This document shows positions 3,301-22,776 of a stretch of DNA of 64,000 bases, piece after piece. Numbering within the stretch: position 1 is the first letter of the stretch; each line of letters opens with the position of its first letter. The position numbers and the translations under genes were made by a program. Origin of the DNA: Candidatus Woykebacteria bacterium (GTDB taxonomy: Bacteria; Patescibacteriota; Microgenomatia; Woykebacterales; RBG-16-39-9b); NCBI GenBank assembly GCA_040876345.1, contig JBBDPM010000004.1, positions 14,980 through 78,979 on the forward strand, given 5' to 3'. The notes beneath the pieces were generated by a model. The model was not told the DNA's origin, did no database searches, and was given only the letters and a program-made list of their open reading frames with translations.

Positions 3301-3320
3301 ATACGTGATCATAAAACTGC

Positions 3321-3408
3321 TTGACTTGTAATTTTAACTCTGATATAAATTGATTCACTTAAATATTGTTTGTTCTGAACACTGCCTCAAAAGGCAGTTT
3401 TTTGTTTC
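3321..3408 (+). promoter_or_regulatory. Sigma70-like promoter (TTGACT, 17 bp spacer, TATAAA) followed about 30 nt downstream by an intrinsic-terminator-like hairpin (ACTGCC tcaaaa GGCAGT plus T-run), in the leader of the pilin/T4SS operon
   Basis: -35 at 3321-3326, -10 at 3344-3349. Hairpin at 3381-3398, followed by tttttgtttct. The RBS GGGGGTGA of the pilin gene follows at about 3422. Confidence 0.4.
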
Positions 3409-3434
3409 TAATCCACCCGAAAGGGGGTGAAGGC

Positions 3435-3767
3435 ATGAAAAAACTTATTGTATTACAGTCATTATTTGTAACCTCTCTGATTGTTGCCGCTCCGGCGTTT
3501 GCACAGAGCGCAGATGTGTCTAAAATCTCGAACTTTATCCAAAACATAATTACAATCTTAGTTACTCTCTCAGGATTTGTGGCAACAGGCTTTTTCGTCT
3601 GGGGAGGATTCAGCTACATTACCAGTACCGGAAACCCTGAATCACTGGATAGATCAAAAAAGACGATCTTCTATTCAGCAATCGGTTTGGCAATTGTACT
3701 TGGAGCATTTGTTATCAGTAATATTGTCACTCAGGTTGCAACTGGCGCGTTTGGCACAGGTAACTAA
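3435..3767 (+). CDS. Small secreted two-TM pilin-like protein (VirB2/TrbC-like topology)
   Basis: Start MKKLIVLQSL at 3435 with RBS AAAGGGGGTGAAGGC. Signal peptide ending AFA-QS, then a hydrophobic segment, GGFSYITSTGNPESL, and a second hydrophobic segment. Paralogous to the N-terminus of the next gene. Confidence 0.45.
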   Translation: MKKLIVLQSLFVTSLIVAAPAFAQSADVSKISNFIQNIITILVTLSGFVATGFFVWGGFSYITSTGNPESLDRSKKTIFYSAIGLAIVLGAFVISNIVTQVATGAFGTGN

Positions 3768-3792
3768 GGCAACTCTCTTAAGCCTAAATGTT

Positions 3793-5082: not shown

Positions 5083-5597
5083 GAACTCAAGTAATTCCAG
5101 CCCAAATCACCACAGTTGAGGATAAAATTGCCGGAAGTCTGAATTTAACCCAAATAATTCTTTTGATCTTTCCAGCTTTCTGGGCAACTATTGTTTATTC
5201 CTTATTTATCCCGAGACTTCAGCTTTCCTTATATAAATTACCACTGGTTTTGATTGTTTTGATCCTTTGTCTTGCTCTTTCAGTTCGAATTAAAGGCAGG
5301 GTGGTAATTAACTGGCTAGTAACAATTTTTAGATATAACCTGCGTCCGAAATACTATGTATTTGATAAGAACGATAGCTTTGCCAGAACACTGGATTTGC
5401 CTAACTTTAAAATGAGACAAAAATCCCAAATCAAGAAAACTATTACAATAGATGAAACCGAGAAAATTGCCGCCCCGGTAACAATTGGCAATTTAGTAAA
5501 ACTGGAAGGATTATTTACAAATCCTAAATACAGCTTTTCATTTAAATCAGGCCGAAAAGGAGGCTTAGATGTTGCTTTTAAACAAGAACAAAAATAG
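5079..5597 (+). CDS. PrgI/VirB3-like small membrane protein of Gram-positive T4SS
   Basis: TVEDKIAGSLNLTQIILLIFPAF... with two TM helices. Lies immediately upstream of VirB4, as in pCF10-type loci. Assignment from memory of the PrgI family pattern. Confidence 0.4.
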   Translation: MRTQVIPAQITTVEDKIAGSLNLTQIILLIFPAFWATIVYSLFIPRLQLSLYKLPLVLIVLILCLALSVRIKGRVVINWLVTIFRYNLRPKYYVFDKNDSFARTLDLPNFKMRQKSQIKKTITIDETEKIAAPVTIGNLVKLEGLFTNPKYSFSFKSGRKGGLDVAFKQEQK

Positions 5598-6189
5598 GGT
5601 CAGCTCAAGGCGCCAAATTCAGATCAAAGAGGTCAAAAACGGCACTTTAGTTCTGCCAGACAATGAATACAGATTAATTATTGAAACCTCCTCAATAAAC
5701 TTCGAGCTTAAAAGTGAGGAGGAGCAGGATATTTTAATTGACAATTTCCAAAACTTTCTTAACTCGCTTCCCTGTGAGCTTCAAGTTCTGGTTCGGGTTC
5801 GTGAAGTCGATATCGACCGTTATTTGGAGGAAATCGGTAAGAGCAAAGCGACTGAGCGCGAGAAGGTTTATCGAGATCAAATCAAAAACTACTGTAGTTT
5901 TATTAAAAACTTGGTGGCCGGCAATAAAATTTTATCACGGCGTTTTTACGTGGTTATCCCTTATAAGAATTCTGACAAAAACAGAGAGTTTGCACTAATT
6001 GAGGAACAAATTAACTTGCAGAAAGATATTATCCTGAGAGGCCTGGAGAAGCTAGGAATGAAAGCCAGGGTTTTGGACAGCTTAGAGCTTCTCGACCTGT
6101 TCTACAGCTTCTACAGCCCTGCACAGGCCAAAACTCAGGAGCTTAAAGGCCACACCATCGAAGCCCTGCTGGAGAATCAATATGTTTAA
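5569..6189 (+). CDS. VirB4/TrbE-like N-terminal domain protein (split from the ATPase)
   Basis: RBS AAAGGAGG precedes the ATG at 5569. 206 aa. Ends within ATGTTTAA, overlapping the start of the next ORF, which is in the +1 frame. Confidence 0.55.
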   Translation: MLLLNKNKNRVSSRRQIQIKEVKNGTLVLPDNEYRLIIETSSINFELKSEEEQDILIDNFQNFLNSLPCELQVLVRVREVDIDRYLEEIGKSKATEREKVYRDQIKNYCSFIKNLVAGNKILSRRFYVVIPYKNSDKNREFALIEEQINLQKDIILRGLEKLGMKARVLDSLELLDLFYSFYSPAQAKTQELKGHTIEALLENQYV

Positions 6190-8032
6190 TACTCTTGAAA
6201 AGCTAAATGAAATATCAGCACCTTATCTTGAGAAGCTCAAGAAAGTTAACCGCCGTAAGCGAACTTCCAAGAAAGAACAGGTTAAAAGATCATTTCAATT
6301 TAACTTTGGGGAGCAAGATCAAATTGATTTAATTTCTTACTCCGGTCTTGAAGAAAACAGCACTTACCTTCAGGTTGATAATAAATTTGTTCGAACACTT
6401 TTTATTTCCGGCTTTCCTTATGTAGCCTCAACCGGCTGGCTAAACATGCTGATTAATTTCAATCACAACATTGATATTTCTTATCACATTGAACAGGTAG
6501 ATCCCATTTATGCCCTGCCTAAACTCAACCGGAAAATTACTGAACTTGAATCAACTAAACGAGCCATGCTCAAAGACGGCAAAGTCATAGGTTCGGAAAT
6601 AACTGATCCGCTCAAATCAGCCATAGAGCTTAAAGACAAAATTCAAAGAGGTCAGGAAAAACTCTTCCAAGTCTCAATTTATATGACCATCTCAGCTGAC
6701 AGCTTAGTTGAGCTAAATAAAACAACCACAATTTTGGAAACTGTTATGTCGACCCGACTTTTTTATATCAAAACCGCCACCTTTCAACAGTTAGAGGGAT
6801 TGCAATCCACATTGCCCCGAGCAGAAAACATCTTAAACCAAAGACGCAATCTGGACAGCTCTTCGGCGGCCTTAACTTTTCCCTTTGTTTCCTCAGAACT
6901 CGTGCAGGAGTCCGGAATACTTTATGGAATCAATAAATCGAATAATTCACTCGTAATTATTGATAGGTTCTCGCTAAATAACGCTAACAGTATTGTCTTT
7001 GCCCAATCCGGAAGTGGTAAAAGTTACACCGCTAAAGTGGAAATTCTCAGACAACTGATGCAAGGAACAAAAGTCATTGTAATTGATCCGGAACGTGAAT
7101 ATAAACAATTAGCGGCGTCAGTAAACGGAACCTATATCAAGTTATCAGCCAAATCCATAGAGAAAATAAACCCTTTTGACTTTTCTTTAAGTTCTTATGG
7201 TGCCGAAAACGATTTAGCGGAGCATATTCAGGATTTAACGGAAATTATTTCTCTCATCGTCGGGGGCTTAAATTCAGAGGAAAAAGCCATTGTTGATAAA
7301 GCAATCATCCAAACCTACAAACAACAAGGTTTCTCACTGAATTACACATATATTCCAAAAGAGAATAAAAGTACTCGAGGTCGAAAGCCAAAAGATAGAA
7401 CTTACCCGCTACTGAAAGACTTTTACCAAGTCTTAAAAGAAATGCGACAAAAAGACCTTTGTGATCGTTTGGAAAAGTTTGTCAACGGGTCACTCTCTTC
7501 GGTCTTTGATTCCCAGACTAATATTGAACTTAATAATAGGCTAGTTGTCTTTGACATCAAAGACTTAAATGAATCTCTGCGAGAAATAATGATGTTAGCG
7601 GTTGCAAACTTTGTTAATTCGCAAGTTAAATCAAGCCCGCAGAAACAAATTCTAGTAATTGATGAGGGCTGGTTACTCCTGGAACATGAAGAGAGCGCCA
7701 GATTCGTTTCGGCACTTGTGAGGCGAGCCAGAAAATATTACTTGGGGGTAACGATTATTTCCCAACAGGCAAATGATTTTCTAAACAGTGAATATGGTCG
7801 GGCGATTGCGTCCCAGTCGTCGCTTAGAATCTTAATGAGGCAAGACACAACCACGATTAAAAAGGTGGCTGAAGAGTTTAAATTAAGCGAGTATGAAGAA
7901 CAGTTTCTTTTAACCTGTGATCGTGGAGAGGCACTGATAATTTCCGATCAGAACCACGTTGCCCTAAAAGTTGTTGCCTCAGACAAGGAACATCCTCTCC
8001 TAACTACTGACCCCAGAGAGATCTACATTTAA
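6182..8032 (+). CDS. VirB4/TrbE/CagE-family T4SS ATPase (C-terminal ATPase part)
   Basis: Walker A in FAQSGSGKSYTAK and Walker B in ILVIDEGW; 616 aa. Confidence 0.85.
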   Translation: MFNTLEKLNEISAPYLEKLKKVNRRKRTSKKEQVKRSFQFNFGEQDQIDLISYSGLEENSTYLQVDNKFVRTLFISGFPYVASTGWLNMLINFNHNIDISYHIEQVDPIYALPKLNRKITELESTKRAMLKDGKVIGSEITDPLKSAIELKDKIQRGQEKLFQVSIYMTISADSLVELNKTTTILETVMSTRLFYIKTATFQQLEGLQSTLPRAENILNQRRNLDSSSAALTFPFVSSELVQESGILYGINKSNNSLVIIDRFSLNNANSIVFAQSGSGKSYTAKVEILRQLMQGTKVIVIDPEREYKQLAASVNGTYIKLSAKSIEKINPFDFSLSSYGAENDLAEHIQDLTEIISLIVGGLNSEEKAIVDKAIIQTYKQQGFSLNYTYIPKENKSTRGRKPKDRTYPLLKDFYQVLKEMRQKDLCDRLEKFVNGSLSSVFDSQTNIELNNRLVVFDIKDLNESLREIMMLAVANFVNSQVKSSPQKQILVIDEGWLLLEHEESARFVSALVRRARKYYLGVTIISQQANDFLNSEYGRAIASQSSLRILMRQDTTTIKKVAEEFKLSEYEEQFLLTCDRGEALIISDQNHVALKVVASDKEHPLLTTDPREIYI

Positions 8033-8036
8033 TCCA

Positions 8037-8669
8037 GTGTCTCCAAATCTTTCCGCGATTGCAGCAATTTGGTCTTTCCGTCGAGAACTAAAATTTGTTT
8101 TCTTCGCCTTTCTAATTACCTTACTTATTCCCGTGCTTGCCGTCATTTTAGTTGCCAATATCGGCTTGAGTGTAGTTTCCAATGCGCTGGCGACAATAAA
8201 CCTGCAGAACAACACTGTCGAAATCCATGATCCGAGAACCGGACAAATAGTCCAGGAGCTTAAAATAACCGCTGTCTGGCCGGTACACGGGATTGTGACC
8301 CTGGAATTCGGCGAAAGCAACTTTCCTTTCCAGGTTTTTCATACCGGAATAGACATAGCCAGTCCTACGAGACAAATTGGCGATCCAGTGACACCTTTTA
8401 TGGAAGGAACGGTAACTTTTGCCGGAGAAATTCCCCTGGGACTTGGAAAACACGTCATAATTGATCACGGAAATAATATTACTTCCTATTACGGTCACTT
8501 AAGTGCCATTTATGTAGTAAAGGGACAAAAAGTAAAACCGGGCGACATAATTGGGGCGGAAGGAGAAACCGGCTGGGCAACTGGTCCACACGTGCATTTT
8601 CAAATTAATGTCTATGGAATCCCAGTTAACCCAAGAACTTTTTTACAAGGCAACCCTTCTTTAAGGTGA
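8037..8669 (+). CDS. M23 family metallopeptidase (LytM-like) with N-terminal TM anchor
   Basis: HTGIDIA, GHLS and GPHVHFQ motifs. GTG start at 8037. Confidence 0.8.
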   Translation: MSPNLSAIAAIWSFRRELKFVFFAFLITLLIPVLAVILVANIGLSVVSNALATINLQNNTVEIHDPRTGQIVQELKITAVWPVHGIVTLEFGESNFPFQVFHTGIDIASPTRQIGDPVTPFMEGTVTFAGEIPLGLGKHVIIDHGNNITSYYGHLSAIYVVKGQKVKPGDIIGAEGETGWATGPHVHFQINVYGIPVNPRTFLQGNPSLR

Positions 8670-8708
8670 AATACAAACTATCTCTAAAGATTGTATAATG
8701 AGGAAAAT

Positions 8709-8915
8709 ATGAACTCTCAAGAACAGCTAGGTAAAAACTTAAAAAAAGCTAGACAAAAGTCTGGAATGACCCAGGCCACTGTGGCTGAAAAGGCCGAGGT
8801 ACATGTTAATTATTATGCTAGAATTGAAAGAGGTGAGGTAAACCCGTCGATTGAAATCTTGGAGAACATAGCCAAAGCTTTGAAAGTAAACTCTTCTGAA
8901 ATCTTACCTTTTTAA
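8709..8915 (+). CDS. XRE-family helix-turn-helix transcriptional regulator
   Basis: GMTQATVAEKAEVHVNYYARIERGE is an HTH_3 pattern. ATG at 8709 with RBS TGAGGA. Confidence 0.7.
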   Translation: MNSQEQLGKNLKKARQKSGMTQATVAEKAEVHVNYYARIERGEVNPSIEILENIAKALKVNSSEILPF

Positions 8916-9352
8916 ATAAATCTCTTGAGTTTCAGAAAATCAAACATTTGATTTACAGTTTCAGATCCTTCTATCCTTCTCATTATTTCGCGGCTGTGGT
9001 TTTGGGAAAAAATGTTAAGACTGCCTTCCCAGAGAACAGTTCTATCAAGTATGGCCAGCTTTCGATGGTGATTGCCCAGGCAAATTAGCACTTGAACTCC
9101 TACGACTTCAAATGCTCGTATTCCCGTCTCGGATTGTTGTTCGAGTTTGATCTCATGCTCCTTTGGATTTCTCGTAATGACGAACACCCTTACATTTTTG
9201 TTTAGCAATTTTTTAAGAATTGGTAAGAATAATTTCATTCTTTCGTTGGTTATATAAGGACTTTCAATAATTACTTCCTTTTGACAACTGACTAGGTCTT
9301 TTATAAAAGCTTGGTAAAAAGTTGTCTCATCAAAGAGTTGGGAGGAGAACAT
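8912..9352 (-). CDS. PLD-family (single HKD) nuclease, Nuc-like
   Basis: Perfect HxK(x4)D(x6)GSxN motif in HHRKLAILDRTVLWEGSLN. Start overlaps the stop of the recombinase gene (TAATG). Confidence 0.75.
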   Translation of the reverse strand: MFSSQLFDETTFYQAFIKDLVSCQKEVIIESPYITNERMKLFLPILKKLLNKNVRVFVITRNPKEHEIKLEQQSETGIRAFEVVGVQVLICLGNHHRKLAILDRTVLWEGSLNIFSQNHSREIMRRIEGSETVNQMFDFLKLKRFI

Positions 9353-10992
9353 TACTCTTCCTCCTCTTCCTTATGGTAAACTTCCATTAACTGACTCAGC
9401 CAGGCTAAAAGCGGTTCAAAAGAAAGTGCGGTTGGGTCACCATATGCTTTTTGTTCAGACAAAAAAGCTGGTTGGAGGGTATCGTAAGGTTGTTTTAGCC
9501 TCACATCCACAACTGTTTTGTTATCAATAACAAATTCCTCGATAAATGCATTGATAAACATTCTCTTAGTTGTGGGATCTGCGATTTTGTAGAGATCGTA
9601 ACAATTATTAAGTATACTTAGTGTTTTATCTAAAGCCCGAAGTCTCATCTTCTCGTCCTCTGTGGTTGATTGTCTATGTTGATTTAGAACAGCCGTTTGT
9701 CGATCGTACTCAACAATCTTTACTTCATAAATATCTTCCGGTATTCTCTTTTCCAAATGTTCCTCGACTAACCTTAACCGCTTTTCCAAAAGAGCCTTAT
9801 ACGCTTTATCAGCTGTTTCTTTTGTTAACCCGGACTGTTCTTTTACCTCCTGCTCAATTTGCTTAACCCGTATTGAAACTAAATTGTACATTGCCTTAGG
9901 AAGTTGAAGTCTCTTGAATATATTCTCAACCTTATCCTCGAGAATTGATGCTGACACCATTGGTTGGTCACAAAGCTCTCGACCGTTTCTAATTGAGCCA
10001 ATACATCTGTGATAGAGCCACTGACCTCTTTGTAAATCTCTTGTTAAACCACTTCCACACCTGAAACATTTTAACTTACTTGCCGTTAAGACAACATCTG
10101 CCGTATTAGTAGTTCTGGTCTTGGGTTTCTGTCTAAGTTTAAGAACCTCCTGAATTCTGTGCCAGGTTGGATCATTCCACATTGGTGGGTGCTCTCCTTT
10201 TGACTCCACAACCTCGTTCGTTTTTCGATCTTTAAATGTAACAAGCCCTGCGTAGAACTTACTTGAAAGTATTCTCCTCAAACCCTCAGTTCTAATAGGC
10301 CGCCCGTTGTGAGTTAGGTATCCTGAGTTGTTAAGCTCCTTGCATATTTGGTGAAGGGTAAACTGATCAGTAGAATAAAGTTTGCCTGCGTATTTAAGTG
10401 CATCAAATCTTTGTGGATCAATCTCAATCCAACTCTTTCTTCTCCCGTCCTCTAGCAGAATTCGTTTATTCAAGTATCCTTGCGGTGCAACAAACATCCA
10501 CTTGCCATCCTTTGTTCTCTGTTTCATACCTTTTACTACTTCTTGAGCTAGATTTCTTATATACCATTCATTAATCAAACTCATTTGTCTTCGAGCAAAC
10601 CAACCAGCAGGATTTGTGGGGTCAATGGGTTCTGAAGCACTAACAATAGACACCCCAATTTTATTCAAGTCTTTTTCATACTTCTGAAATTCAAAATCGT
10701 TTCTGAAAGCTCGATCGAACTTGTGAATGATTATATATTTGAAGAATCCTTGTTTAGCGTCATTAAGCAATTGGTTAAACTCTTCTCGGTTCTCAGCCAG
10801 CTTCCCACTTTCTAAATCGACATACTCTCTGTAGATTGGCAATTTTGGTGGTAGGATAAGGTTTTGGCCAAACTGAATGGCCTTGTAACAATTGTCGAGC
10901 TGAGCTGGTATCGAGACTTCTTTCTTTTGTCTTTCTTCATCACTCATTCGACAATAAATAGCTACTTTCTCTTCTGGTTCAATCTTTTTCAT
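9352..10992 (-). CDS. Large serine recombinase (integrase)
   Basis: N-terminal resolvase domain with VAIYCRMSDEE (catalytic Ser), then a recombinase domain and a Cys-rich zinc ribbon (CFRCGSGL...HRC). Start MKKIEPEE at 10992, preceded by GGAAGTGA. Confidence 0.85.
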   Translation of the reverse strand: MKKIEPEEKVAIYCRMSDEERQKKEVSIPAQLDNCYKAIQFGQNLILPPKLPIYREYVDLESGKLAENREEFNQLLNDAKQGFFKYIIIHKFDRAFRNDFEFQKYEKDLNKIGVSIVSASEPIDPTNPAGWFARRQMSLINEWYIRNLAQEVVKGMKQRTKDGKWMFVAPQGYLNKRILLEDGRRKSWIEIDPQRFDALKYAGKLYSTDQFTLHQICKELNNSGYLTHNGRPIRTEGLRRILSSKFYAGLVTFKDRKTNEVVESKGEHPPMWNDPTWHRIQEVLKLRQKPKTRTTNTADVVLTASKLKCFRCGSGLTRDLQRGQWLYHRCIGSIRNGRELCDQPMVSASILEDKVENIFKRLQLPKAMYNLVSIRVKQIEQEVKEQSGLTKETADKAYKALLEKRLRLVEEHLEKRIPEDIYEVKIVEYDRQTAVLNQHRQSTTEDEKMRLRALDKTLSILNNCYDLYKIADPTTKRMFINAFIEEFVIDNKTVVDVRLKQPYDTLQPAFLSEQKAYGDPTALSFEPLLAWLSQLMEVYHKEEEEE

Positions 10993-11167
10993 TATCACTT
11001 CCATTTTGTTCTGATAAATTTACAGTGTCAACCATACCTGCTTGTTCAGACAAATAGGTTCGGTCCTTATCAAATGCTTGCCAAACTGCCATAGAAAGCT
11101 CTTCAACTCTAAGTTGCCAGATCTTTAAGCATCCTCATTCTGTTCCCCAGTCTCTTTCCTAATAAGT

Positions 11168-12414: not shown

Positions 12415-13386
12415 ATGAGTCAGAATAAGGCAGCACTTACTAACAAACCAAAGAAGCACCACTATGTTTCTCAGTTCTATCTGAGGGGCTTTCTGGATTC
12501 AAATAGTCAATTAAACATCTTTGATAGGTACAACAAAGTCTTTTTGAAACGTACTCCTGGTGGTATTGCTTATAACGAGAACTACTACACTGTCGACACC
12601 AAACAGGAGAAGGGCAGCACTATTCTTGAAGAGACACTCGGGCTAGTTGAAACAAAAGCAAAGCCAGTAATTGACAAGCTAACTCAGCACGGAGCTGTGT
12701 TAACCAAAGAGGAACGTGAGAATCTTGGCCTTTTCCTAGCTCTTCAACAACAAAGGGTGCCTGATAGTGAAAAAGCTAAGCGGGAAATGGCGGAAAAGAC
12801 TTATAAAGCCGTGGCTCAGAAGTTTGCTCATCTTTTGGCGACAAATAATGAGGCCTTTGAAACCACCAAGAAAAAGGTGCCTAAAGTTAAGGGCTCGCCA
12901 GAATTAACGCAAGAAGATTGGCTTGGGCTTGCTACAGGTGAGAAGTTTAAATTGGAAATTGAGGTACCGCACAGTTTTGTAGTTAAGCAGATGTTTGACT
13001 TGGCGCTTGAAGTCGCTCCGCTTATTTGTCAAATGAATTGGAAAGTTCTTTACGCATCGAAGAGTAGGGCTTTCACTACATCAGACAACCCATTCATCTT
13101 AAGTGGTAGTCCTTGGGCTCCAGGTAGAGGTGTGGGGCTTATTACGCCGAGGTCAAGAAAGTTCTTCCCTTTAACAAAGGGCGCTTGTTTGTTTATGGGC
13201 GATCAGCCAACAGCAACACTGGAGTTTGCTAGTGCTACTTCAGATGGGGTTCGTCAAATTAACAGGTTGACTGCACTTAACAGTGATAGATATATAATCT
13301 CTCATAATCAAGATCTGCTGAAGAGAATAGTAAAGATAACGAAAGTCGATACCTTCATAAAAGAGGAACGAGTTCAAGTAGGATAG
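12415..13386 (+). CDS. DUF4238 family protein
   Basis: N-terminal HHYVSQFYLRGF matches the DUF4238 signature (HYVPQFYL.xF), from memory. Own promoter TTGCCG, 17 bp spacer, TAGAAT at about 12374-12402. Confidence 0.55.
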   Translation: MSQNKAALTNKPKKHHYVSQFYLRGFLDSNSQLNIFDRYNKVFLKRTPGGIAYNENYYTVDTKQEKGSTILEETLGLVETKAKPVIDKLTQHGAVLTKEERENLGLFLALQQQRVPDSEKAKREMAEKTYKAVAQKFAHLLATNNEAFETTKKKVPKVKGSPELTQEDWLGLATGEKFKLEIEVPHSFVVKQMFDLALEVAPLICQMNWKVLYASKSRAFTTSDNPFILSGSPWAPGRGVGLITPRSRKFFPLTKGACLFMGDQPTATLEFASATSDGVRQINRLTALNSDRYIISHNQDLLKRIVKITKVDTFIKEERVQVG

Positions 13387-14480: not shown

Positions 14481-15587
14481 TTACCCCACCTTATCGTAAG
14501 GATCATATTCGACTTCTTCCGTTTCTGCGAAATTAAAGTCCCCAGAATCATCGTCCTTAATACCTAAGTAACCAGCAAAGCCTGTGTCGAGGTTTATTCC
14601 TTTGACAAGAGTAGGAATCTTTTTGAGTATTTCTTGAGAGTACTTCTCAGCATTGCCATTACCTACCACGTGCAGAATGGTTTCTTCCTTGCAAGATTTC
14701 AGCATTTCTTTGATAATTTCATCTCTTGCTTTGTACCCTATTAGATAAACCTCGTCCGCCTTACTAAACAATTCTTTGCCTGCCGCAATAATCTTTTCGT
14801 AGAACCCAGTCACGAACTTGTACTCTTTAATTGTCAACGGGAGAAATATAAGTGGGTAGAAATGTTGGTTGCCAAATCTACTACTAACAAGAGGGTGTAG
14901 TTGGTTTAGGTCGGGGTGATTTACTTCTACAACCTTTGTGTCTGTAACCTGTAAGGGTGGGGCACTAAAAATTAGACTGCTCGCAAGATCATAACGAACT
15001 CTCATATCAAAGCGACCCTCTTCAGATATACCCCGATCGTCCTTTCTCTTTGGTATCAACCAATTAACTGAGCCGTGAGGTTTGAGATAGACGATATTTA
15101 AGTCATTATTAAGGCAATCATCCAATGTCCAAAATTCTGCGCCAAACACCTCACTCAGGGCTTTATCTAGTAATATATCGTAATTGAAGTTTACCAAGCC
15201 AAACTCCTCCTCACTCTTAGCCAGCTTGTTTGCAAACACCTTATAGAGGTTTGTTTCGTCATAAGTGTCGGATACCGCTCTAAGTAGGTTCCATACATAT
15301 AAAGCTATTCTTCCAAAGAGTCTCATCTCTGACTCCTTTTGCCAAGGCTTCTTTAACTTCTGTACGTTAAGCCAACGTTCGGTTAAATAATCTTCCAAAC
15401 TCTCGTAGCCGGAGACATCTTTTGCCAAGGACTCCAAGTCTTTTGTAGATAAACCTACTTCCTTGGCGCGATCAGCGTATTGCGAGTTAAATAAATCGTT
15501 TGTTACTGGAGATTCGGTCACTACAGTATGAACTTGCGATCCTTTTGAAGCTCCAGCGCCGAAAATGTACACTTTCATAGCTGCCAT
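14481..15587 (-). CDS. SIR2-like (SIR2_2 / DHS-like NAD-binding) domain protein
   Basis: VYIFGAGASKGS at the N-terminus and KPHGSVNWL are the SIR2_2 hallmarks seen in defence SIR2 proteins (ThsA, DSR). 368 aa. Confidence 0.6.
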   Translation of the reverse strand: MAAMKVYIFGAGASKGSQVHTVVTESPVTNDLFNSQYADRAKEVGLSTKDLESLAKDVSGYESLEDYLTERWLNVQKLKKPWQKESEMRLFGRIALYVWNLLRAVSDTYDETNLYKVFANKLAKSEEEFGLVNFNYDILLDKALSEVFGAEFWTLDDCLNNDLNIVYLKPHGSVNWLIPKRKDDRGISEEGRFDMRVRYDLASSLIFSAPPLQVTDTKVVEVNHPDLNQLHPLVSSRFGNQHFYPLIFLPLTIKEYKFVTGFYEKIIAAGKELFSKADEVYLIGYKARDEIIKEMLKSCKEETILHVVGNGNAEKYSQEILKKIPTLVKGINLDTGFAGYLGIKDDDSGDFNFAETEEVEYDPYDKVG

Positions 15588-16514: not shown

Positions 16515-16576
16515 CCCTGGATTATTCTCTCTAATCAGTGCTATAGGATTTTTGTGTCGAGATTCTGAGACACCCC

Positions 16577-16806
16577 TTTTTATAGGGTCTCATTTGTCTC
16601 ATTTAGCCTCCTGATGAGACAAGACCCTTGCGACTATAATCGTCCTCGATTTAGTCCACGAGGTGGTCGCAAAGCGCGAAGCGATCTACATCTCGCCGCT
16701 TGAAACTCTGCGAGTTATAATCGCAGATTACATCAGCTCTTGTAACACAAGAGTGTTATAGCGACTGAACTGACCGAGACCCCAATGCTTCACCATTGTT
16801 GTTTCC
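16577..16806. repeat. Intergenic repeat family, copy 1 (~230 bp), ends GGGTCTC...GAGACCC
   Basis: 5' block tttttataGGGTCTCATTTGTCTCA, internal ATTTAGCCTC, and 3' block AGCGACTGAACTGACCGAGACCCCAATGCTTCACCA are shared with copy 2. Contains an internal hairpin GGGTCTcattTGTCTCAT...ATGAGACAagaccc. Confidence 0.8.
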
Positions 16807-16875
16807 TTGGTGACAAATGGCCCAATTAGCTCGAAGGATAAGTAAGTTCAAGAAAGGCAGGAGGGCAGGTAAGAA

Positions 16876-17286
16876 CTACGGTTTGCGAGAATCAGAGGTT
16901 GCACTACCAAAAGCTCTACCATCAGCTTTGGCAGCCTCTGGTTGAGAATCTGCAACACTATTAGCAAAGTCTGCATTGGAGTTTACCTCACTAACAGATT
17001 GTCCAAAAGTTTGACCATCTAACTTTGGTTCCTCAGGGGTTCTTTCCGAAACCCCAAGGTTTGCATTATCTTCTGCAGTTGTATTGTTGATAACAACATT
17101 TGAAGGCTCAGCTCCTGTTGGGTGGTTTTCCTTTACGTATTCGGAAACAGCAGAACCGGAAATTTTTGCTTCATCAGAAGGATTAGTATCTTTTGAAGCT
17201 GGAACAGACCCACTAACTGCAGCAGAAATACTAACTACAATGGCAAGAACGGCAGCAACAAAGGCTTCTATCATAAAATTAGTCAC
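16876..17286 (-). CDS. Hypothetical secreted low-complexity protein
   Basis: N-terminal TM/signal segment, then a Ser/Ala/Asn/Glu-rich region. Confidence 0.4.
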   Translation of the reverse strand: MTNFMIEAFVAAVLAIVVSISAAVSGSVPASKDTNPSDEAKISGSAVSEYVKENHPTGAEPSNVVINNTTAEDNANLGVSERTPEEPKLDGQTFGQSVSEVNSNADFANSVADSQPEAAKADGRAFGSATSDSRKP

Positions 17287-17437
17287 CTCCTAACCAATAG
17301 TGTTATTACTTGTATTGTACAGATAAATTACACATTTATAATTAGGAGCACCTTTCGAAAAGTGGGCTAAAGAACCTTCGTGGTCACCAATTAGCCTCTT
17401 TTGACTAGCCTTCTATGCAAACTGTATAATTAAATTA

Positions 17438-18439
17438 ATGCTCAATCAAAATGTTCCTAATCCACTCGCCAAAAATCCTAATCTCTATACCCACAAAGTC
17501 TTTGCTGCAATTGGAATAATTCTAATAGTAATAATAATTATCTGTGGTGGGATTTGGTATTTTGCCCAAAGTGCTGAAGACAAATCTCCAACAGTAATTA
17601 AAACTTCAAATTGGAAAAGTTATTCTTCTGAAAGAGAAGGAATAAGTTATACTGTTAAGTACCCGTTAAACTTTAAAATTTACCCAAATTTAAAAACAGA
17701 CCAAAACCCGTCCGTAGACTATATCAGTAACCAGTCTTCTCTGATGGAAAATTCGAAGCCAGGCGATATATCAATATCAATTAGTGTAGAAACTTCTGAT
17801 ACTGTTAATGATTCCTACTCTGATTCAAAATTAGGAAATGTTGAGGCTAAAAGAAAAGAAAGCATAGGCAGTTCAGTACATGGCCCAGACTCTTCAATTA
17901 TTGATTATGAAGTGCCTTTCATAAACGGCAAGGATACCCTCATGGTTTCTTGCTATTTTATGCCAGCGGGGGATAAAAAAGGTAGAGACGCTTGCGAAAA
18001 GATAATTGGAACTTTTAATATTATCGTAGATAAAACTTTAAAATGGGATAGCTATACAAATGACAAATTCAAATATTTTTTTAAATACCCGTCAGACCTC
18101 GTGGTTATTAACGCATACGAGGATGTTTTAGGTGTGCCAACTGACGATAAGGGGTATAAAACTACAAGCAAAATTTATATTCAGAATGCAGCAGGTAGAA
18201 TATTCACGTTATCTGTTTTCAAAAACAATCAAAGCCTCCCAGATTTGGAAAACAAAACAAAGACGGATAAAGCAAATTCTAATATTAGCAAACTTCAAAT
18301 TTCGGGAGTTGAAGCAATAGACTTTAAAAGAGATGGAACTAAGTTTATGGAGGTGGTAAACCGTGGCCAACAATTTGAATTTGCGGTTGCTGATGAAACA
18401 AGAATAGACGAAGTGCTTCAAACATTTAAATTCCTATAA
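17438..18439 (+). CDS. Hypothetical membrane-anchored extracellular protein
   Basis: N-terminal TM helix followed by a hydrophilic domain. Confidence 0.5.
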   Translation: MLNQNVPNPLAKNPNLYTHKVFAAIGIILIVIIIICGGIWYFAQSAEDKSPTVIKTSNWKSYSSEREGISYTVKYPLNFKIYPNLKTDQNPSVDYISNQSSLMENSKPGDISISISVETSDTVNDSYSDSKLGNVEAKRKESIGSSVHGPDSSIIDYEVPFINGKDTLMVSCYFMPAGDKKGRDACEKIIGTFNIIVDKTLKWDSYTNDKFKYFFKYPSDLVVINAYEDVLGVPTDDKGYKTTSKIYIQNAAGRIFTLSVFKNNQSLPDLENKTKTDKANSNISKLQISGVEAIDFKRDGTKFMEVVNRGQQFEFAVADETRIDEVLQTFKFL

Positions 18440-18605
18440 ATTGCTCAGATTCTAATCAACTTAGGTAGTTATGCCCCAACTTGTTGTTAGCCTCGAAAGA
18501 CTGTAGTATATTTAAGTTGCCCCATTGTGTCAGAACCTGGTTCAATGTGTTTAATTGCAGGGTTGCTAGGGTCACCATTAGTCTCTAGCACAAAATTCAA
18601 GAAAA

Positions 18606-20162
18606 ATGGCGCACAATACACGTTTATCACTGACCGGATTAATGATTGCTTGTGCTCTCTATGGAGAATCTCTTCGTCCAGTTTTACTTCCCCTTAACAC
18701 AAACAGCCAAATTATTTTTAGTGGTATTGTGATTGCTATTGGTTATGAAATTGGTGTGCTACTTTCGGTGACAGCTCAAAAATTAGGGATTAGGAAGGTC
18801 GCGTTACAAAGAAGCCTTAAATATTTTATCGCCACCTTAGTTGTTTTAGTTGCGGGGTTTCTCTCATGGAGGGCTATGGACGCTCAACAGAGCTTTCGCG
18901 ACTTTTTAGTAATTGCGGCTCCTGCACCAAATTGGGTAGTAGTCTGGCTGGGATCTTTATTAGTAGCGGCATTGTTAGTTCATTTGGGTTTGCTAATACG
19001 AGCTTTTGCCAGGTGGTGTGGGAAAAAAGTGCAAACCTATCTTAACAAAAAATTTACCTACAATTTCACCTGGCTGCTAGTTGCTGGACTAGGGTATCTG
19101 CTGCTTATTTTATTGGTAGTTGTAATGCAAATATTAGTTGATATCAGTTCGCGAGCAAAGCCGAGGGAAACTTACCAGAAAAGCTCTACTTTTCTTAGCG
19201 GAGGCGAAGGGTCACTGATCTCTTGGGAGGGTTTGGGCCAAAACGGTAGGGAGTTTGTTTCTAGGGATATACAAGCTTTGATGCAGTCGATTATTGGGGA
19301 ACTTCCGCTAAAAACGATGAAACCGATCCGAATTTACGCAGGAATCGACAACGAGCCAGATTTGGAAAAGAGAGTAGATCTAGTGATGAGAGAGTTTGAG
19401 AGAACAAGGGCGTTTGAACGTTCGGTTGTGGTGATGTTTACCCCATCAGGTAGCGGTTGGGTAAACCCCGTGGGAGTTGAATCAGTTGAGTTTGTTACCA
19501 GGGGAGATTCCGCCTCGGTTTCATTGCAATATTCAAACAATCAGCCAATCTTGCAATACATAAGAGATCGCGGGATGCCCGCTAGAGCCAGCAATCTTCT
19601 GTTTTCTAAAATTCGTAGTCGTCTTAATCAGGTGCCAGAGGTAGCACGACCGAAGCTTTACGTTTACGGTGAAAGCTTAGGTTCTCTAGGTTCTCAAGAA
19701 ATGTTCCAGAATACCCCCCAAAGGAATCTAGTAAACGAAGTGGATGGCGCACTTTGGGTTGGTTCGCCTGCTTCCGGTCCACTTTGGTCGGCGTTTGGAC
19801 TTGCCGAGTTATACTCTGGTGGAGAAAGCTCTTTGGTTCGTGTCGAGCCTCACTCGAGAGACTTAACTAGCAATTTGAGTTCGTGGGGACCACCACGCTT
19901 GGCATTTCTCTTCAACTCCACCGACCCAATTGTTTGGTCTAACCCACTAGTTATTTATAAGTTCCCAAGATGGTTAAAAGAACCACGCTTTCCGGAAGTA
20001 AGTAAAGAAGCCCGTTGGTTACCATTACTCACCTTTGGACATATGTGGTTTGAACTATTCTCGGCCAAGAATTTACCCAGTGGTATTGGTCATAACTACG
20101 ATCAGGAAATTCCTTGTGCAATTGCAAATGTTGTACAACCTAGAATTGAGGAGATGTGCTAA
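18606..20162 (+). CDS. Membrane-bound alpha/beta hydrolase (Abhydrolase_9-like, N-terminal multi-TM domain)
   Basis: 4-5 N-terminal TM helices. GESLG nucleophile elbow in YVYGESLGSLGS. Confidence 0.6.
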   Translation: MAHNTRLSLTGLMIACALYGESLRPVLLPLNTNSQIIFSGIVIAIGYEIGVLLSVTAQKLGIRKVALQRSLKYFIATLVVLVAGFLSWRAMDAQQSFRDFLVIAAPAPNWVVVWLGSLLVAALLVHLGLLIRAFARWCGKKVQTYLNKKFTYNFTWLLVAGLGYLLLILLVVVMQILVDISSRAKPRETYQKSSTFLSGGEGSLISWEGLGQNGREFVSRDIQALMQSIIGELPLKTMKPIRIYAGIDNEPDLEKRVDLVMREFERTRAFERSVVVMFTPSGSGWVNPVGVESVEFVTRGDSASVSLQYSNNQPILQYIRDRGMPARASNLLFSKIRSRLNQVPEVARPKLYVYGESLGSLGSQEMFQNTPQRNLVNEVDGALWVGSPASGPLWSAFGLAELYSGGESSLVRVEPHSRDLTSNLSSWGPPRLAFLFNSTDPIVWSNPLVIYKFPRWLKEPRFPEVSKEARWLPLLTFGHMWFELFSAKNLPSGIGHNYDQEIPCAIANVVQPRIEEMC

Positions 20163-20234
20163 ATTTAAGGTGTTTTTTCATATGATTCCTAAAGTAAAAC
20201 TAGAAAGGGACAGCTTACAGTACACAAGAAATTA

Positions 20235-20453
20235 GATGCGAAACATATACAAAGAAACTACAAAAAGATCTTTGATGAAGCCAAAAAGACTAAAGAGCCC
20301 GTGTTTGTCATGAAGAACAATAAACCACAGGTCGCCATCATCGATGCAAAAAAGCTTGAAGAGATGGAAGCTATACTAGCTGTTCTGGAAAGTAGAGAAG
20401 AGGCTAGGGCTGGTAAGACAAAGGTTTTGCGATCTCTCAAAGATCTGTGTTAG
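20235..20453 (+). pseudogene. Phd/YefM-family antitoxin, apparently frameshifted at an A5 run
   Basis: The frame ending at TAG 20451-20453 reads ...AKHIQRNYKKIFDEAKKTKEPVFVMKNNKPQVAIIDAKKLEEMEAILAVLESREEARAGKTKVLRSLKDLC, which is Phd/YefM-like. The only upstream ATG (20236) is in another frame and reads MRNIYKETTKRS..., and the frames meet near caaaaag (20261-20267). Confidence 0.45.
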
Positions 20454-20690
20454 ATGAAGATCCACTACTCGTCAAAGTTTGCTAGAGAATACAAGAAGTT
20501 ACCAAATAGCGTTAAAGACATTGCTGAAAATAAAGAAGATATTCTTCGTCTTGATCCTTTTAACCCTCGGCTGAAGACTCACAAGTTAAAAGGAGAGTTG
20601 GCAGATTTTTATTCGTTTTCGATCACTTACCAGCTAAGGATAGTTTTTCACTTCGGTTGCTTGTTTTTACCCAATAAAAGTACAATATAA
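20454..20690 (+). CDS. RelE/ParE-family toxin, possibly C-terminally degenerate
   Basis: KLPNSVKDIAENKEDILRLDPFNPRLKTHKLKGELADFYSFSITYQLRIVF is a RelE/ParE pattern. The start overlaps the antitoxin stop (TAGATG). C-terminus is atypical. Confidence 0.6.
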   Translation: MKIHYSSKFAREYKKLPNSVKDIAENKEDILRLDPFNPRLKTHKLKGELADFYSFSITYQLRIVFHFGCLFLPNKSTI

Positions 20691-20694
20691 ATAG

Positions 20695-21471
20695 ATGTTT
20701 CCTTTTTCCAAGAAAACCGATTTTGGGTACTTGCGAAAATTCAACCTAATTATGGCTGCCTTGCACGCACTTCAAGGTATCGCCATTTTACTTCTTAGCA
20801 CAGACTTCAAGCTTCCAGTTACCGCTGGATATTTAACCTTTAATGCAGCCACTCAAGCTCTGGAACCGGCTAAAGAAACTTTGTTTGATCTTTCACTTGC
20901 TCCCCTTGTGGCTATCTTTTTCTTTCTTTCAGCTGCGGCTCACTTAACCATTGCCACGCTTTGGAGAAAAGGTTACGAGAATGATTTATCCAAAGGGATG
21001 AACAGAGCCCGTTGGTTTGAATACGCGCTATCAGCAAGTGTGATGATGGTGGCTATTGCTCTTTTAGTTGGAATCTACGAGGTTACCCAGCTGATCATGA
21101 TCTTTGCTTTGGTTGCTTTTATGAACCTGATGGGACTCTTGATGGAAGTATATAACCAAACTACCCAAAAGACTAATTGGCTCTCATTTATAATCGGCAG
21201 TTTTGCCGGGATTGTACCCTGGTTGGTCGTTGGCCTTTACTTCTGGGCCGCAGCGGCCTTTGGAGAAGGAGAGGTACCTACCTTTGTTTACTGGATTTAC
21301 GTATCAATCCTTATTTTCTTCAATTGCTTCGCAATAAATATGTACCTGCAATACAAGAAAGTTGGAAAATGGAGGGACTATATTTTTGGTGAAAAATCTT
21401 ATATAGTTCTGAGCCTGGTTGCAAAATCCGCTCTTGCTTGGCAAGTATTCGCTGGGACACTCCGACCGTAA
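20695..21471 (+). CDS. Heliorhodopsin
   Basis: 7-TM protein. The C-terminal helix EKSYIVLSLVAKSALAWQVF, and also LRKFN, RWFEYALSASVMM and FAGIVPW, match what I recall of heliorhodopsin 48C12, including the Schiff-base Lys in VAKS. Confidence 0.75.
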   Translation: MFPFSKKTDFGYLRKFNLIMAALHALQGIAILLLSTDFKLPVTAGYLTFNAATQALEPAKETLFDLSLAPLVAIFFFLSAAAHLTIATLWRKGYENDLSKGMNRARWFEYALSASVMMVAIALLVGIYEVTQLIMIFALVAFMNLMGLLMEVYNQTTQKTNWLSFIIGSFAGIVPWLVVGLYFWAAAAFGEGEVPTFVYWIYVSILIFFNCFAINMYLQYKKVGKWRDYIFGEKSYIVLSLVAKSALAWQVFAGTLRP

Positions 21472-21493
21472 AACTTGATATACTTAAAATACT

Positions 21494-22303
21494 ATGGATA
21501 AAACACCTGTAAATAAGCTATTAGATCTTTCCTCCAAGACTGCTGTGGTTACCGGTGCAGGTGTAGGAATTGGATTTGGGATAGCCAGCCGATTGGCTGA
21601 GGCTGGGGCAAACGTGGTAGTAGCTGATCTAAGTGAGGAGAGAGCTTCTGAGGCAGCAAGAAAGCTATCTGGTAACGGTTTTAAGGCGACAGCAATAGCA
21701 GTCGATGTTTCAAAAGAGGAAGATGTTCAGAAAATGGCAGATGAGTCTATAAAGCAGTTTGGCGGGATAGACATATTAGTAAACAACGCTGGTATTTACC
21801 CAAACATTTTAGTAATGAATATGACCCAGGAAGATTTTGATAAACTAATCGCTGTGAACCTGAGAAGTGTGTTCCTATGCACCAAAAAAGTCGCTGAGAA
21901 GATGATTGGCCAAGGAAAAGGTGGGAGAGTCATCAACATTACCTCCATTGACGCTCTTCACCCCTCGTCTGCCGGTCTTGCTCACTATGATGCTTCTAAA
22001 CACGGGGTTTGGGGTTTCACCAAGAACGTTGCGTTGGAACTGGCTCCACACAAAATCTGGGTAAACGCAGTGGCTCCAGGAGGCATTGCTACCCCGGGCG
22101 TGGAAGAAGTTCAGAAAAAGATGGAACTTCCCAAAGGAGTGGATATGAGTAAGCTCCTTGAAGCTTTTATGGCAAAAATCCCAATTAAGAGGATGGGAGA
22201 TCCAGATGACATTGGCAAAGCCGTACTCTTCTTGGCTTCAGATATGTCCTCCTATATGACTGGTTCCCAAATTGTGGTTGATGGCGGAGTTCTTCTTTCT
22301 TAA
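21494..22303 (+). CDS. SDR-family oxidoreductase (classical short-chain dehydrogenase)
   Basis: TGAGVGIGFG cofactor motif, NNAG, and the YxxxK pair in YDASKHG. Confidence 0.85.
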   Translation: MDKTPVNKLLDLSSKTAVVTGAGVGIGFGIASRLAEAGANVVVADLSEERASEAARKLSGNGFKATAIAVDVSKEEDVQKMADESIKQFGGIDILVNNAGIYPNILVMNMTQEDFDKLIAVNLRSVFLCTKKVAEKMIGQGKGGRVINITSIDALHPSSAGLAHYDASKHGVWGFTKNVALELAPHKIWVNAVAPGGIATPGVEEVQKKMELPKGVDMSKLLEAFMAKIPIKRMGDPDDIGKAVLFLASDMSSYMTGSQIVVDGGVLLS

Positions 22304-22324
22304 ACCTTAATTTTAGACATTCAC

Positions 22325-22452
22325 TTTTTATACTGTCTCATTTGTCTCACTTCGGTATCCTCGGTGTAAACACTTCGACTTCACTCAGTACAAGCATTTA
22401 GCCTCTAAGCGATTGAACTGACCGAGACCCCAATGCTTCACCAAATTTGTTT
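22325..22452. repeat. Intergenic repeat family, copy 2 (~128 bp)
   Basis: Shares both terminal blocks and the ATTTAGCCTC box with copy 1, in the same orientation. Confidence 0.8.
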
Positions 22453-22524
22453 TTGAGCCTCGCGGCTTCGCAATTATATTGATAGTGCATTGCTATTTGC
22501 CAACTAATGTTCTAATATAAATAC

Positions 22525-22776
22525 ATGGCTATATACATTGCAAACGAGGCTCATGAGGAAGGCGAACATGAAAATAAAGTAAAGGAAGTAGAAAGTTTTC
22601 GATCACCATTGAAGGAGGTAACTTTTTACGCCAGCTGTTCTACTGGTGGTCCACACCGCTCTTTTATCATAGTTCACGCCGACTCATTGGACGAGGCAAA
22701 ATCTGGTGTCCCTGAAGGTTTTAGAGAAAATTTAGTTGAAGTCGAAGAAATGGACTGGGGTCCAGCACCAGAGTAG
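22525..22776 (+). CDS. Hypothetical small acidic protein
   Basis: ORF only. No clear RBS. Confidence 0.25.
   Translation: MAIYIANEAHEEGEHENKVKEVESFRSPLKEVTFYASCSTGGPHRSFIIVHADSLDEAKSGVPEGFRENLVEVEEMDWGPAPE

Follow-up and report, generated by a model that had tools for sequence, protein, structure and literature searches.

Two intergenic repeats around a heliorhodopsin gene of Candidatus Woykebacteria belong to a modular element family of CPR bacteria, a candidate promoter/leader cassette and recombination linker

In a 64,000-nucleotide stretch of contig JBBDPM010000004.1 of Candidatus Woykebacteria (here called the window), two copies of an intergenic repeat lie on either side of a 5.5-kb segment that harbors a heliorhodopsin gene. 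The locus raises the question of whether the repeats mark a mobile cassette on which the heliorhodopsin gene arrived, as an earlier note on this DNA had proposed, or represent something else. We found that they are independent members, differing in architecture, of an apparently undescribed family of 100- to 230-bp intergenic elements of the ultra-small bacteria of the Candidate Phyla Radiation (CPR; Patescibacteria); they are not att-type duplications, and as a pair they are ordinary within their family. As to function, we favor a modular promoter/stem-loop/leader cassette that doubles as a recombination linker, similar to the PeSL elements of T4-type phages, and give this reading a probability of about 0.5. 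The CPR bacteria are mostly uncultured, and very little is known about their promoters, their RNA regulators, and the ways in which they exchange genes.

Copy 1 (16562 to 16805) and copy 2 (22310 to 22452), with approximate bounds, are both intergenic and share the same orientation. Copy 1 occupies the gap between an EamA transporter gene and a convergent open reading frame (ORF) of 136 amino acids (aa), copy 2 that between a short-chain dehydrogenase/reductase (SDR) gene and an 83-aa ORF. Both contain a 5' block, a ATTTAGCCTC box, and a 3' block, just as described in the earlier note. The 5' block, CTTTTTATA-NN-GTCTCATTTGTCTCA, is identical at 26 of 29 positions (16576 to 16604 versus 22324 to 22352), and the 3' block shows 91% identity over 45 nucleotides (nt) (16760 to 16804 versus 22408 to 22452). 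Its core, AGCGAYTGAACTGACCGAGACCCCAATGCTTCACCA, agrees at 35 of 36 positions, close to the 33 of 34 counted previously. The ATTTAGCCTC box is located at 16601 to 16610 in copy 1 and at 22396 to 22405 in copy 2, where a 46-nt insert (22350 to 22395) has shifted it. The inverted pair GGGTCTC (16585 to 16591) and GAGACCC (16777 to 16783), which had been taken for the termini, exists in copy 1 only, and since the similarity between the copies extends beyond both heptamers, they are not the ends of the element. For the 30-nt core of the 3' block as well as the 15-nt core of the 5' block, the 64 kb contains exactly two matches, a number reached in no shuffled sequence, and neither family profiles nor searches that tolerated as many as 3 mismatches detected a third copy in the window. 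Copy 1, to which an internal hairpin had been attributed, folds far better than its shuffles (-76.8 kcal/mol, z = -6.5); copy 2 folds no better than its shuffles (z = 0.1). The features of the two copies and the two genes most closely concerned are as follows.

16562 to 16805, forward strand: copy 1, a full element with an expanded middle, which aligns with copy 2 and with family members
16566 to 16591, forward strand: stem-loop of copy 1 around a -10-like box, TGAGACACCC / TTTTTATA / GGGTCTCA, read from the sequence
16587 to 16604, forward strand: tandem GTCTCATTT (two units), core of the 5' block, exact in both copies and in more than 120 metagenome contigs
16594 to 16622, forward strand: P1 hairpin of copy 1, in which TTGTCTCAT pairs with ATGAGACAA (nine perfect pairs in the minimum free energy [MFE] fold), with the TTAGCCTCC box in the loop
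16623 to 16752, forward strand: internal expansion of copy 1, with four hairpins (MFE fold) and two TATAAT boxes (16635-16640 and 16716-21)
16753 to 16795, forward strand: 3' module of copy 1, GTGTTATAGCGACTGAACTGACCGAGACCCCAATGCTTCACCA, aligned column by column with the family module GTTATAgGGAyaGAAaGGTTCCAGACCnnnnTGCTCcGCC
20695 to 21471, forward strand: heliorhodopsin gene (Pfam PF18761, E = 1.9e-99)
22310 to 22452, forward strand: copy 2, a full element with an insert and a single 3' module, matched end to end by the family profile (22333 to 22453, E = 1.9e-8)
22314 to 22349, forward strand: 5' block of copy 2, consisting of the arm TAGACA, TTTTTATA-CT (hexamer TATACT), and GTCTCATTT GTCTCA, an exact match to the family pattern
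22350 to 22395, forward strand: insert of copy 2 between GTCTCA and the TTTAGCC box (CTTCGG...CTCAGTACAAGC)
22396 to 22443, forward strand: ATTTAGCCTC box and 3' module of copy 2, its core identical to the copy 1 module at 35 of 36 positions
22525 to 22776, forward strand: 83-aa ORF, the first co-oriented gene past copy 2, present in the ORF list and called as a gene in Logan contigs, with no Pfam family in it

A family profile built without the window matches copy 1 at 16587 to 16622 (E = 2e-7) and at 16746 to 16805 (E = 2.3e-5), and the 3' module of copy 1 is the top nhmmer match in the window (E = 0.027). The -10-like hexamer of this copy reads TATAGG and lacks the near-invariant final T of the family. 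Its internal expansion looks like degenerate tandem 3' modules. A related locus, L213, contains an element with the architecture of copy 1 but not its ~130-nt middle, which identifies copy 1 as an internally enlarged member, one with three TTATA boxes.

The family was defined from metagenome loci (numbered L083 to L204). Its 5' block, TTTTTATA-NN-GTCTCATTTGTCTCA, is exact in both window copies. A search with the pattern TTTTTATANNGTCTCATTTGTCTCA (25 nt with 23 fixed bases) yielded exact matches in more than 120 metagenome contigs, which is a lower bound, and in 2 of 2.9 million viral contigs. Members are present in Microgenomates (Woykebacteria) and in Parcubacteria (Nealsonbacteria), the latter represented by L154, as judged by a 96% RpoD match, so that the 5' block is conserved to the base across the two main CPR superphyla. 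The alternative offered in the earlier note, a miniature inverted-repeat transposable element (MITE) or structured-RNA family of this lineage, was right in that the repeats form a family, which is far wider than the lineage. Such conservation at the nucleotide level across the CPR is unusual, as is the association of the family with gene-exchange junctions. Covariance-model searches gave no Rfam family: neither copy had a match in Rfam 15 at E <= 10 except a chance hit to CRISPR-DR31 (E = 7), and 20 family loci searched at E <= 0.1 contained tRNAs only. No match to the family was found among cultured phages (50,697 records) and plasmids (72,556 records), and the literature searched for the motif sequence and for CPR non-coding RNA (ncRNA) motifs held nothing relevant. 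A 20-mer from the 3' block of the window had 0 matches in genome, metagenome, and viral collections. The 3' module of the window is a lineage-specific variant, divergent from that of the family and still alignable with it, and the modules of L213, L215, and L147 are intermediate between the two. At least two exact 5' blocks lie on one 847-kb contig among the matches listed, and a profile of the 3' module had 110 matches in 764 kb of family loci.

The modules of the element follow a common order on the forward strand. An optional motif, TATATCAAAnTAYATCA, opens the element and is followed in about half of the members by an upstream arm, (G/A)AGACACYCC, which is complementary to the NNGTCTC after the T-tract. 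An arm of at least 5 nt, 3 to 6 nt upstream, was present in 50% of 121 members versus 6.6% of shuffles, and both window copies have one. The arm precedes TTTTTATA(G/C)T, itself followed by GTCTCATTT GTCTCA. Among 117 unique TTTTTATANNGTCTCATTTGTCTCA matches, CCY stands before the T-tract, and the second free position of the pattern is T (1.9 bits), which the search did not require; the result is a -10-like hexamer, TATA(G/C)T, around which GAGACAC and GTGTCTC often form a stem-loop. Exactly after GTCTCA, elements may have a variable insert, often a GC hairpin; as in copy 2, it is located at the identical point in L109, L123, L131, L153, L156, L186, L093, and L158, some of these inserts being perfect GC hairpins. 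TTTAGCC(T)C and the motif (T)GA(G/T)ACA(A/C)T come next. In its G version, the latter pairs back to GTCTCA to form the P1 hairpin seen in copy 1 (26 of 81 members have such a GAGACA partner), and with T it reads as an extended -10 motif, TGnTACAAT. Between the 5' block and the 3' module, an extended -10 of the form TGnTAnWMT is found on the forward strand of 41 of 81 elements and on the reverse strand of 1 of 81, ending 21 to 44 nt before AGACC.

The terminal part consists of one or more 3' modules, GTTATArGGAy-N5-GGkyCyAGACC-N4-TGCTCmGCC, which lie downstream of the 5' block on the same strand in both window copies. Elsewhere they also occur alone or in tandem with a period of 55 to 70 nt (tandem in L087, L138, L123, L183, and L193). 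One covarying pair closes the module (U:A in 25 sequences, G:C in 18), and 86% of cells of its inner helix are paired. Some members, here called type B (among them L154, L104, L141, L099, and L195), are directly followed by hairpins with T-runs that resemble intrinsic terminators; they look like stand-alone short transcription units, and the one in L154 lies right after rpoD. After some elements, we also observed a further conserved non-coding motif, AAGACGGGCACC..GTGACCC or GGA(G/C)(A/G)GGGATGAGAAGTTTACC with a CCCTCCCTCTCCGC partner. It was seen after the 3' module in L156, L169, L183, L192, and L118, and additionally in L097, L145, L153, and L160, which suggests longer modular leaders.

The elements are always intergenic and often fill the entire gap between two genes. 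The nearest downstream ORF is co-oriented with the element in 62 of 87 cases (71%, p = 9e-5), whereas the orientation of the upstream ORF shows no significant bias. A co-oriented ORF starts within 250 nt of 63 of 86 modules, compared with 49 of 98 on the control side, and two elements abut co-oriented tRNA genes. The chromosomal CPR contexts include rpoD, primase, and tRNA genes and a nearby atp operon. In function, the genes downstream have nothing in common (they include NUDIX, GIY-YIG, HIT, GTPase, and primase genes, among others): 48 downstream proteins match 67 different Pfam families, the most frequent of which, NUDIX, accounts for 4 of the 48. This diversity is expected of a generic promoter or leader and not of a regulon or riboswitch. 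Clustering of gene neighborhoods among the family loci revealed no constant neighbor protein family. Of the ~120 family loci, 7 contain a gene for a large serine recombinase, which in several cases adjoins the element. GIY-YIG genes of ~85 to 100 aa lie directly downstream of elements in L085, L111, L138, L167, L193, and L215, and NUDIX genes in L123, L131, L132, and L204. All three gene types recur more often than we had expected.

Comparison of loci showed that the elements have sharp edges and that homology tends to break there. L171 and the viral contig L204 have only the 120-bp element in common, at 100% identity, between unrelated flanks, and its edges show neither terminal inverted repeats nor target duplications nor a conserved flanking tetranucleotide; the left flanks read TAAAAC and TGTTCT. 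The homology of L116 to L204, at 98.5% identity over a length of 5.6 kb, goes as far as the final base of the element and no further. Among the megablast alignment ends inside family loci, 7 of 26 fall within 25 nt of an element edge, although such windows make up only a few percent of the sequence. A further case is the pair L145 and L201, in which the same upstream gene and near-identical elements are followed by different downstream genes. These downstream genes are shared with L160 and L202, respectively, where the upstream regions differ.

The contig L204 (IMGVR_UViG_3300020195_001307) is exactly periodic with a unit of 9117 bp (5363 of 5363 positions identical at that offset); it probably represents either a circular element of small size or a concatemer created by assembly. 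Encoded in the unit are a terminase-like protein, a pair of DNA methylases, one of which is fused to ParB, a ribonucleotide reductase, a PfkB kinase, and a NUDIX protein, whose gene sits right after the family element.

The heliorhodopsin gene offers a further view of such exchange. When the window was compared with seven related loci (76 to 85% aa identity), the heliorhodopsin ORF alone could be aligned, from ~10 nt before the ATG to the stop codon, and all flanks differed. In the closest relatives, L213 (85% aa identity) and L215 (84%), the first half of a 5' block (..GAGACAC-C-TTTTTATACT-GTCTCAT..) stands alone ~60 nt upstream of the heliorhodopsin ATG, and a full element of the window's subfamily, followed in L215 by a small GIY-YIG gene, starts 1 to 8 nt past the stop codon. 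The half element retains nothing but the promoter-like part. The heliorhodopsin gene of this lineage is thus a single-gene unit bracketed by family elements, and the bracketed unit consists of heliorhodopsin alone, with no TA (toxin-antitoxin), SDR, or hydrolase gene. Related CPR heliorhodopsin loci (L209, L210/L211, L212, L214, and L216 to L219) have highly variable neighborhoods, including restriction-modification systems, Fic, DUF2177, and DUF2196. Several have the str operon (rpsL-rpsG-fusA) some kilobases downstream of the heliorhodopsin gene, whereas in the window it is the atp operon that the gene lies next to.

In the window itself, the bracket formed by copies 1 and 2 holds six genes or gene pairs: the 136-aa ORF (reverse strand), a 333-aa ORF, an Abhydrolase_9 gene, a RelE/Phd-like pair, heliorhodopsin, and the SDR gene. 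The assignments of heliorhodopsin, SDR (E = 2e-66), and Abhydrolase_9 are solid, and the heliorhodopsin has a 100% identical counterpart in a metagenome-assembled genome of Candidatus Woykebacteria (Microgenomates). The TA pair reported earlier is weakly supported, with a YafQ/RelE-like match at E = 2e-4 and a Phd/YefM-like match at E = 7e-3, both below the Pfam cut-offs, and a stabilizing TA module also finds no counterpart in the cassettes of the relatives. With 35 to 46% GC, the composition of the segment is not distinct from its surroundings. No recombinase gene lies within or abuts it, the nearest being 5.5 kb outside on the side of copy 1. All Logan assemblies with the segment, from two samples (SRR27977658 and SRR27977662), show one arrangement. 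The conserved atp operon starts at ~23.8 kb, and in 80 GTDB loci of relatives none of the genes of 11 to 23.8 kb was found beside it, neither EamA, the 83-aa ORF, NUDIX, nor any gene of the segment. In one of the two samples, SRR27977662, the region is split into three contigs (L002, L206, and L208) whose ends fall inside copy 1 (16690 to 16716) and inside copy 2 (22354 to 22375), which could reflect heterogeneity of the population or hairpin-related loss of coverage at the elements. The proposal of a mobile or recombination-prone heliorhodopsin cassette is therefore supported in part: indirectly for the gene, by its differing flanks, its bracketing in L213/L215, and the breakpoints at element edges elsewhere, and not for the 5.5-kb segment, which shows no sign of movement as a unit.

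The comparisons show membership of both copies in the family, its anatomy and orientation bias, and its sharp edges with breakpoints at them. From this pattern, we infer promoter activity, termination, and a mechanism of recombination as parts of one cassette. The 5' block would be a promoter, composed of the T-tract and the -10 hexamer TATA(G/C)T, often placed within the GAGACAC/GTGTCTC stem-loop, which could also stop or insulate read-through from the upstream gene. Transcripts would start in or near the tandem GTCTCATTT repeats and continue into a structured leader made up of the P1 hairpin, any inserted hairpins, in many cases an extended -10 as second promoter, and at least one 3' module ending in ..AGACC-N4-TGCTCMGCC. 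This leader would precede the next gene or occasionally form a short stand-alone transcript. Since the same blocks of ~25 to 45 nt stand between unrelated genes, the cassettes may also act as sites of homologous (or factor-assisted) exchange at which the flanked genes are shuffled. Judging from the orientation bias of the family, the gene that copy 2 probably drives or leads is the 83-aa one at 22525. Copy 1, with a convergent gene ahead of it and a -10 that has lost its final T, may be decaying or yield only a short RNA. A 25-nt motif conserved to the base in two superphyla is a testable candidate for a CPR promoter/leader, with possible uses in annotation, the reading of metatranscriptomes, and expression tools.

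The closest known counterparts are the PeSLs of T4-type phages, conserved intergenic composites of ~100 bp with an AT-rich tract, a sigma-70-type promoter, and a stem-loop that lies between the promoter boxes or overlaps the -10 (PMC2839356, PMC4122927). They occur next to small accessory genes of plastic regions, mark points where homology between related genomes breaks, and can enclose single ORFs in pairs, and their promoter and terminator activity as well as mini-circles have been demonstrated (PMC2839356, PMC4122927). The CPR elements are likewise intergenic composites of ~100 bp just upstream of the next gene start, with a stem-loop adjoining or overlapping a promoter-like box. The family likewise adjoins small accessory genes of plastic regions and, the window's own segment excepted, also shares the exchange points between unrelated flanks and the bracketing of single genes. 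A promoter directed toward the downstream gene is suggested by the conserved, strand-specific -10 and extended -10 motifs and by the orientation bias; there is, however, no evident -35, and copy 1 has TATAGG and a convergent neighbor. In contrast to PeSLs, which populate hyperplastic regions of T4-type phages, the CPR elements reside in cellular chromosomes. The two have no sequence similarity, and the CPR elements carry a long, conserved, putatively transcribed part (tandem GTCTCATTT and 3' module) that PeSLs lack, with 3' modules that may be tandem or solitary. Whereas activity and mini-circles are established for PeSLs, the promoter and terminator activity of the CPR elements is putative. 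The presence of the motif at starts of unrelated genes and at homology breakpoints suggests that the T4-type mechanism, a regulatory cassette serving as recombination linker, operates in cellular genomes as well. It also provides a specific hypothesis for the movement between lineages of heliorhodopsin genes, whose scattered distribution lacks an explanation.

Other intergenic repeats resemble the family in part. BOX elements of Streptococcus pneumoniae are modular, with constant ends and a variable number of internal modules, have predicted stable RNA structures, and can affect the expression of neighboring genes. They are confined to one genus, exceed 100 copies per genome, and have no embedded consensus promoter. 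The CPR family is also modular with constant ends and a variable interior, but it is low-copy, clustered, and spread across very deep lineages, and it shares no sequence similarity with BOX. Correia repeat-enclosed elements of Neisseria are short and intergenic, supply promoters and terminator-like or RNase-processed hairpins, and are linked to rearrangement; they possess terminal inverted repeats of 26 bp together with a TA target duplication, and both kinds of feature were looked for in the CPR family and not found. Repetitive extragenic palindromes (REP), bacterial interspersed mosaic elements (BIME), and the palindrome-associated transposable elements (PATEs) derived from IS200/IS605 are intergenic, hairpin-based, and free of terminal inverted repeats and target duplications, as are the CPR elements. 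The latter differ in being much longer and modular, in their promoter motifs, and in having neither a recurrent RAYT/TnpA nor a conserved tetranucleotide.

Several observations weigh against the cassette as we conceive it. No convincing -35 was found at 16 to 18 nt from TATA(G/C)T. The cassette offers no explanation for the role of the 3' module, which is strongly conserved, has only one covarying pair, and gave no consensus structure in RNAalifold; type B members gave none either. A convergent gene faces 29% of the elements, copy 1 among them. No element was found in 1.33 Mb of atp-operon loci (including ~20 CPR genomes) or near the heliorhodopsin gene of the more distant relatives (76 to 79% aa identity), so the family is not a general promoter of these genomes. 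In the Logan contigs recovered, no insertion/deletion polymorphism of the 5.5-kb segment was seen. Finally, 120-bp copies that are 100% identical in unrelated contexts and an exact 25-nt motif in two superphyla exceed ordinary promoter conservation and hint at active mobility or a dedicated binding factor. A bolder version of the cassette would be a pan-CPR mobile regulatory cassette with a dedicated trans-acting protein that recognizes the GTCTC/AGACC repeats, moving between Microgenomates and Parcubacteria genomes and their mobile elements and serving as a vehicle for swapping single accessory genes such as heliorhodopsin. The partner could possibly be one of the recurrent serine recombinases or small GIY-YIG nucleases. 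We regard this version as tentative and as distinctly less probable than the plain cassette.

If the function lay in the RNA (e.g., protein binding, processing, or stability), the elements would be a structured ncRNA family of cis leaders or small trans-acting RNAs, with constant ends (GUCUCAUUUGUCUCA... and ...AGACC-N4-stem-GCCA), a modular interior, and a mere promoter in the upstream DNA. The stable fold of copy 1, the strong P1 and 3' hairpins of many members, the tolerance of variable GC hairpins at one exact insertion point, the compensatory pair and well-paired inner helix of the 3' module, its tandem arrangement, and the terminator-like hairpins that trail type B members as in independent small genes all fit such a family. 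However, copy 2 is as stable as its shuffles, conservation is that of primary sequence, mutual information tracks subfamilies and not base pairs, and the partner of the conserved 3' strand takes differing positions between subfamilies. In addition, neither Rfam, even at a permissive E value, nor RNAalifold yielded a family or a consensus, and the half element before heliorhodopsin in L213/L215 retains just the promoter-like part. We consider an RNA family rather unlikely. Somewhat less probable still is a non-autonomous mobile element of MITE or PATE type, mobilized in trans via subterminal hairpins as in IS200/IS605 derivatives or REP, or spread by a homing-type nuclease or serine recombinase, with an incidental promoter. 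It would account for the sharp edges, the identical copies between unrelated flanks in different metagenomes, the hairpins near both ends, the exact 5' block in Woykebacteria and Nealsonbacteria (which suggests horizontal spread), the serine recombinase genes (one of them 5.5 kb from copy 1), and the small GIY-YIG genes just downstream of elements. Yet the features of a MITE, including one of Correia type, are missing, as GGGTCTC/GAGACCC lies inside the conserved span of copy 1 only and the L171/L204 edges have neither terminal inverted repeats nor target-site duplications. Those of an IS200/IS605-derived PATE or a REP were likewise not seen, as no HUH transposase (TnpA/RAYT) occurs among the recurrent neighbors or the 48 downstream genes, where TnpB is also missing, and the left flanks differ without a conserved tetranucleotide. 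Copies are moreover few per contig and clustered (at least two exact 5' blocks in the 847-kb contig, among the matches listed), they vary in size and architecture by gain and loss of internal modules instead of copying one master, and no pair of empty and filled sites was found.

The strict form of the cassette idea takes the copies as attL/attR-type direct repeats of one integrated 5.5-kb cassette stabilized by the TA pair. Direct repeats do flank accessory genes near a region with a serine recombinase that resembles an integrative and conjugative element (ICE), segment genes other than heliorhodopsin have no homologue in the heliorhodopsin-region loci of the relatives, and the assembly of one sample breaks inside both copies. 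Homologues of the window's SDR (65 to 70% identical) exist in the family loci L179 and L164, not next to their elements. Against att repeats, whether of a tRNA-type island or of a serine recombinase, stand the two separated blocks shared around unrelated middles, with no single crossover core, and the same family at more than 120 unrelated sites. The distance to the nearest recombinase, the ordinary composition, the single arrangement in all recovered contigs, and the bracketing of heliorhodopsin alone in the closest relatives argue in the same direction, and we consider this explanation very improbable.

Further candidates were tried and discarded. An integron attC array was rejected because RYYYAAC...GTTRRRY cores are missing at the element ends and six genes lie between the copies, and a riboswitch or regulon operator because the downstream proteins show no functional coherence. 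The sequence GG-UUCYAGA-CC looks like a T-loop, and GCCA forms the end of many copies (CACCA in the window copies); for a tRNA-like minihelix, however, only 2 to 3 stem pairs are supported, and neither ARAGORN nor the Rfam tRNA model finds anything there. TIGR-Tas arrays consist of 36-nt units. The hammerhead-like CUGAUGAG in copy 1 is a P1 strand (UGAUGAGACA). For a T7/SP6-type promoter on the reverse strand (GACACTATA), gene orientation and downstream terminators favor the forward strand. Sigma-54, extracytoplasmic function (ECF) sigma factor, LexA, and CIRCE operators show resemblance in half-sites only and the wrong spacing. A small leader peptide starting at the NTG of ..NTGCTCAGCC has no codon-like pattern of variation, and GTCTC is not an avoided restriction site (89 observed versus 85 expected).

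The surroundings of the segment include several further features. An ICE-like island extends from 332 to 11004, with genes for an EcoRI-type adenine methylase, T5orf172, an M23 peptidase, a PLD-family nuclease, and a type IV secretion set (pilin/TrbL-like, PrgI, TraC-like, and a TraG/VirB4-type ATPase). It ends with a 550-aa large serine recombinase (9352 to 11004, reverse strand). Between this region and copy 1 lie genes for a DUF4238 protein (12415 to 13386) and a 368-aa protein with a weak SIR2-like match (14481 to 15587, reverse strand), which are possible defense genes. Seven tRNA genes, some of which form a His-Arg-Gly cluster, have their CCA ends encoded and are located at 48457-48644, 56436-56511, 60157-60416, and 63894-63968, none of them linked to the repeat family. 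Methylase and DUF3800 genes belong to the ICE-like set within positions 1 to 11 kb. A DUF3800-V RNA (RF02964, 64.5 bits) at 2480 to 2576 on the forward strand abuts the DUF3800 gene (2570 to 3247, reverse strand), and a 67-nt direct repeat (2204 to 2270 and 3235 to 3301, 93% identical) brackets both, a second instance in the window of direct repeats around a small unit.

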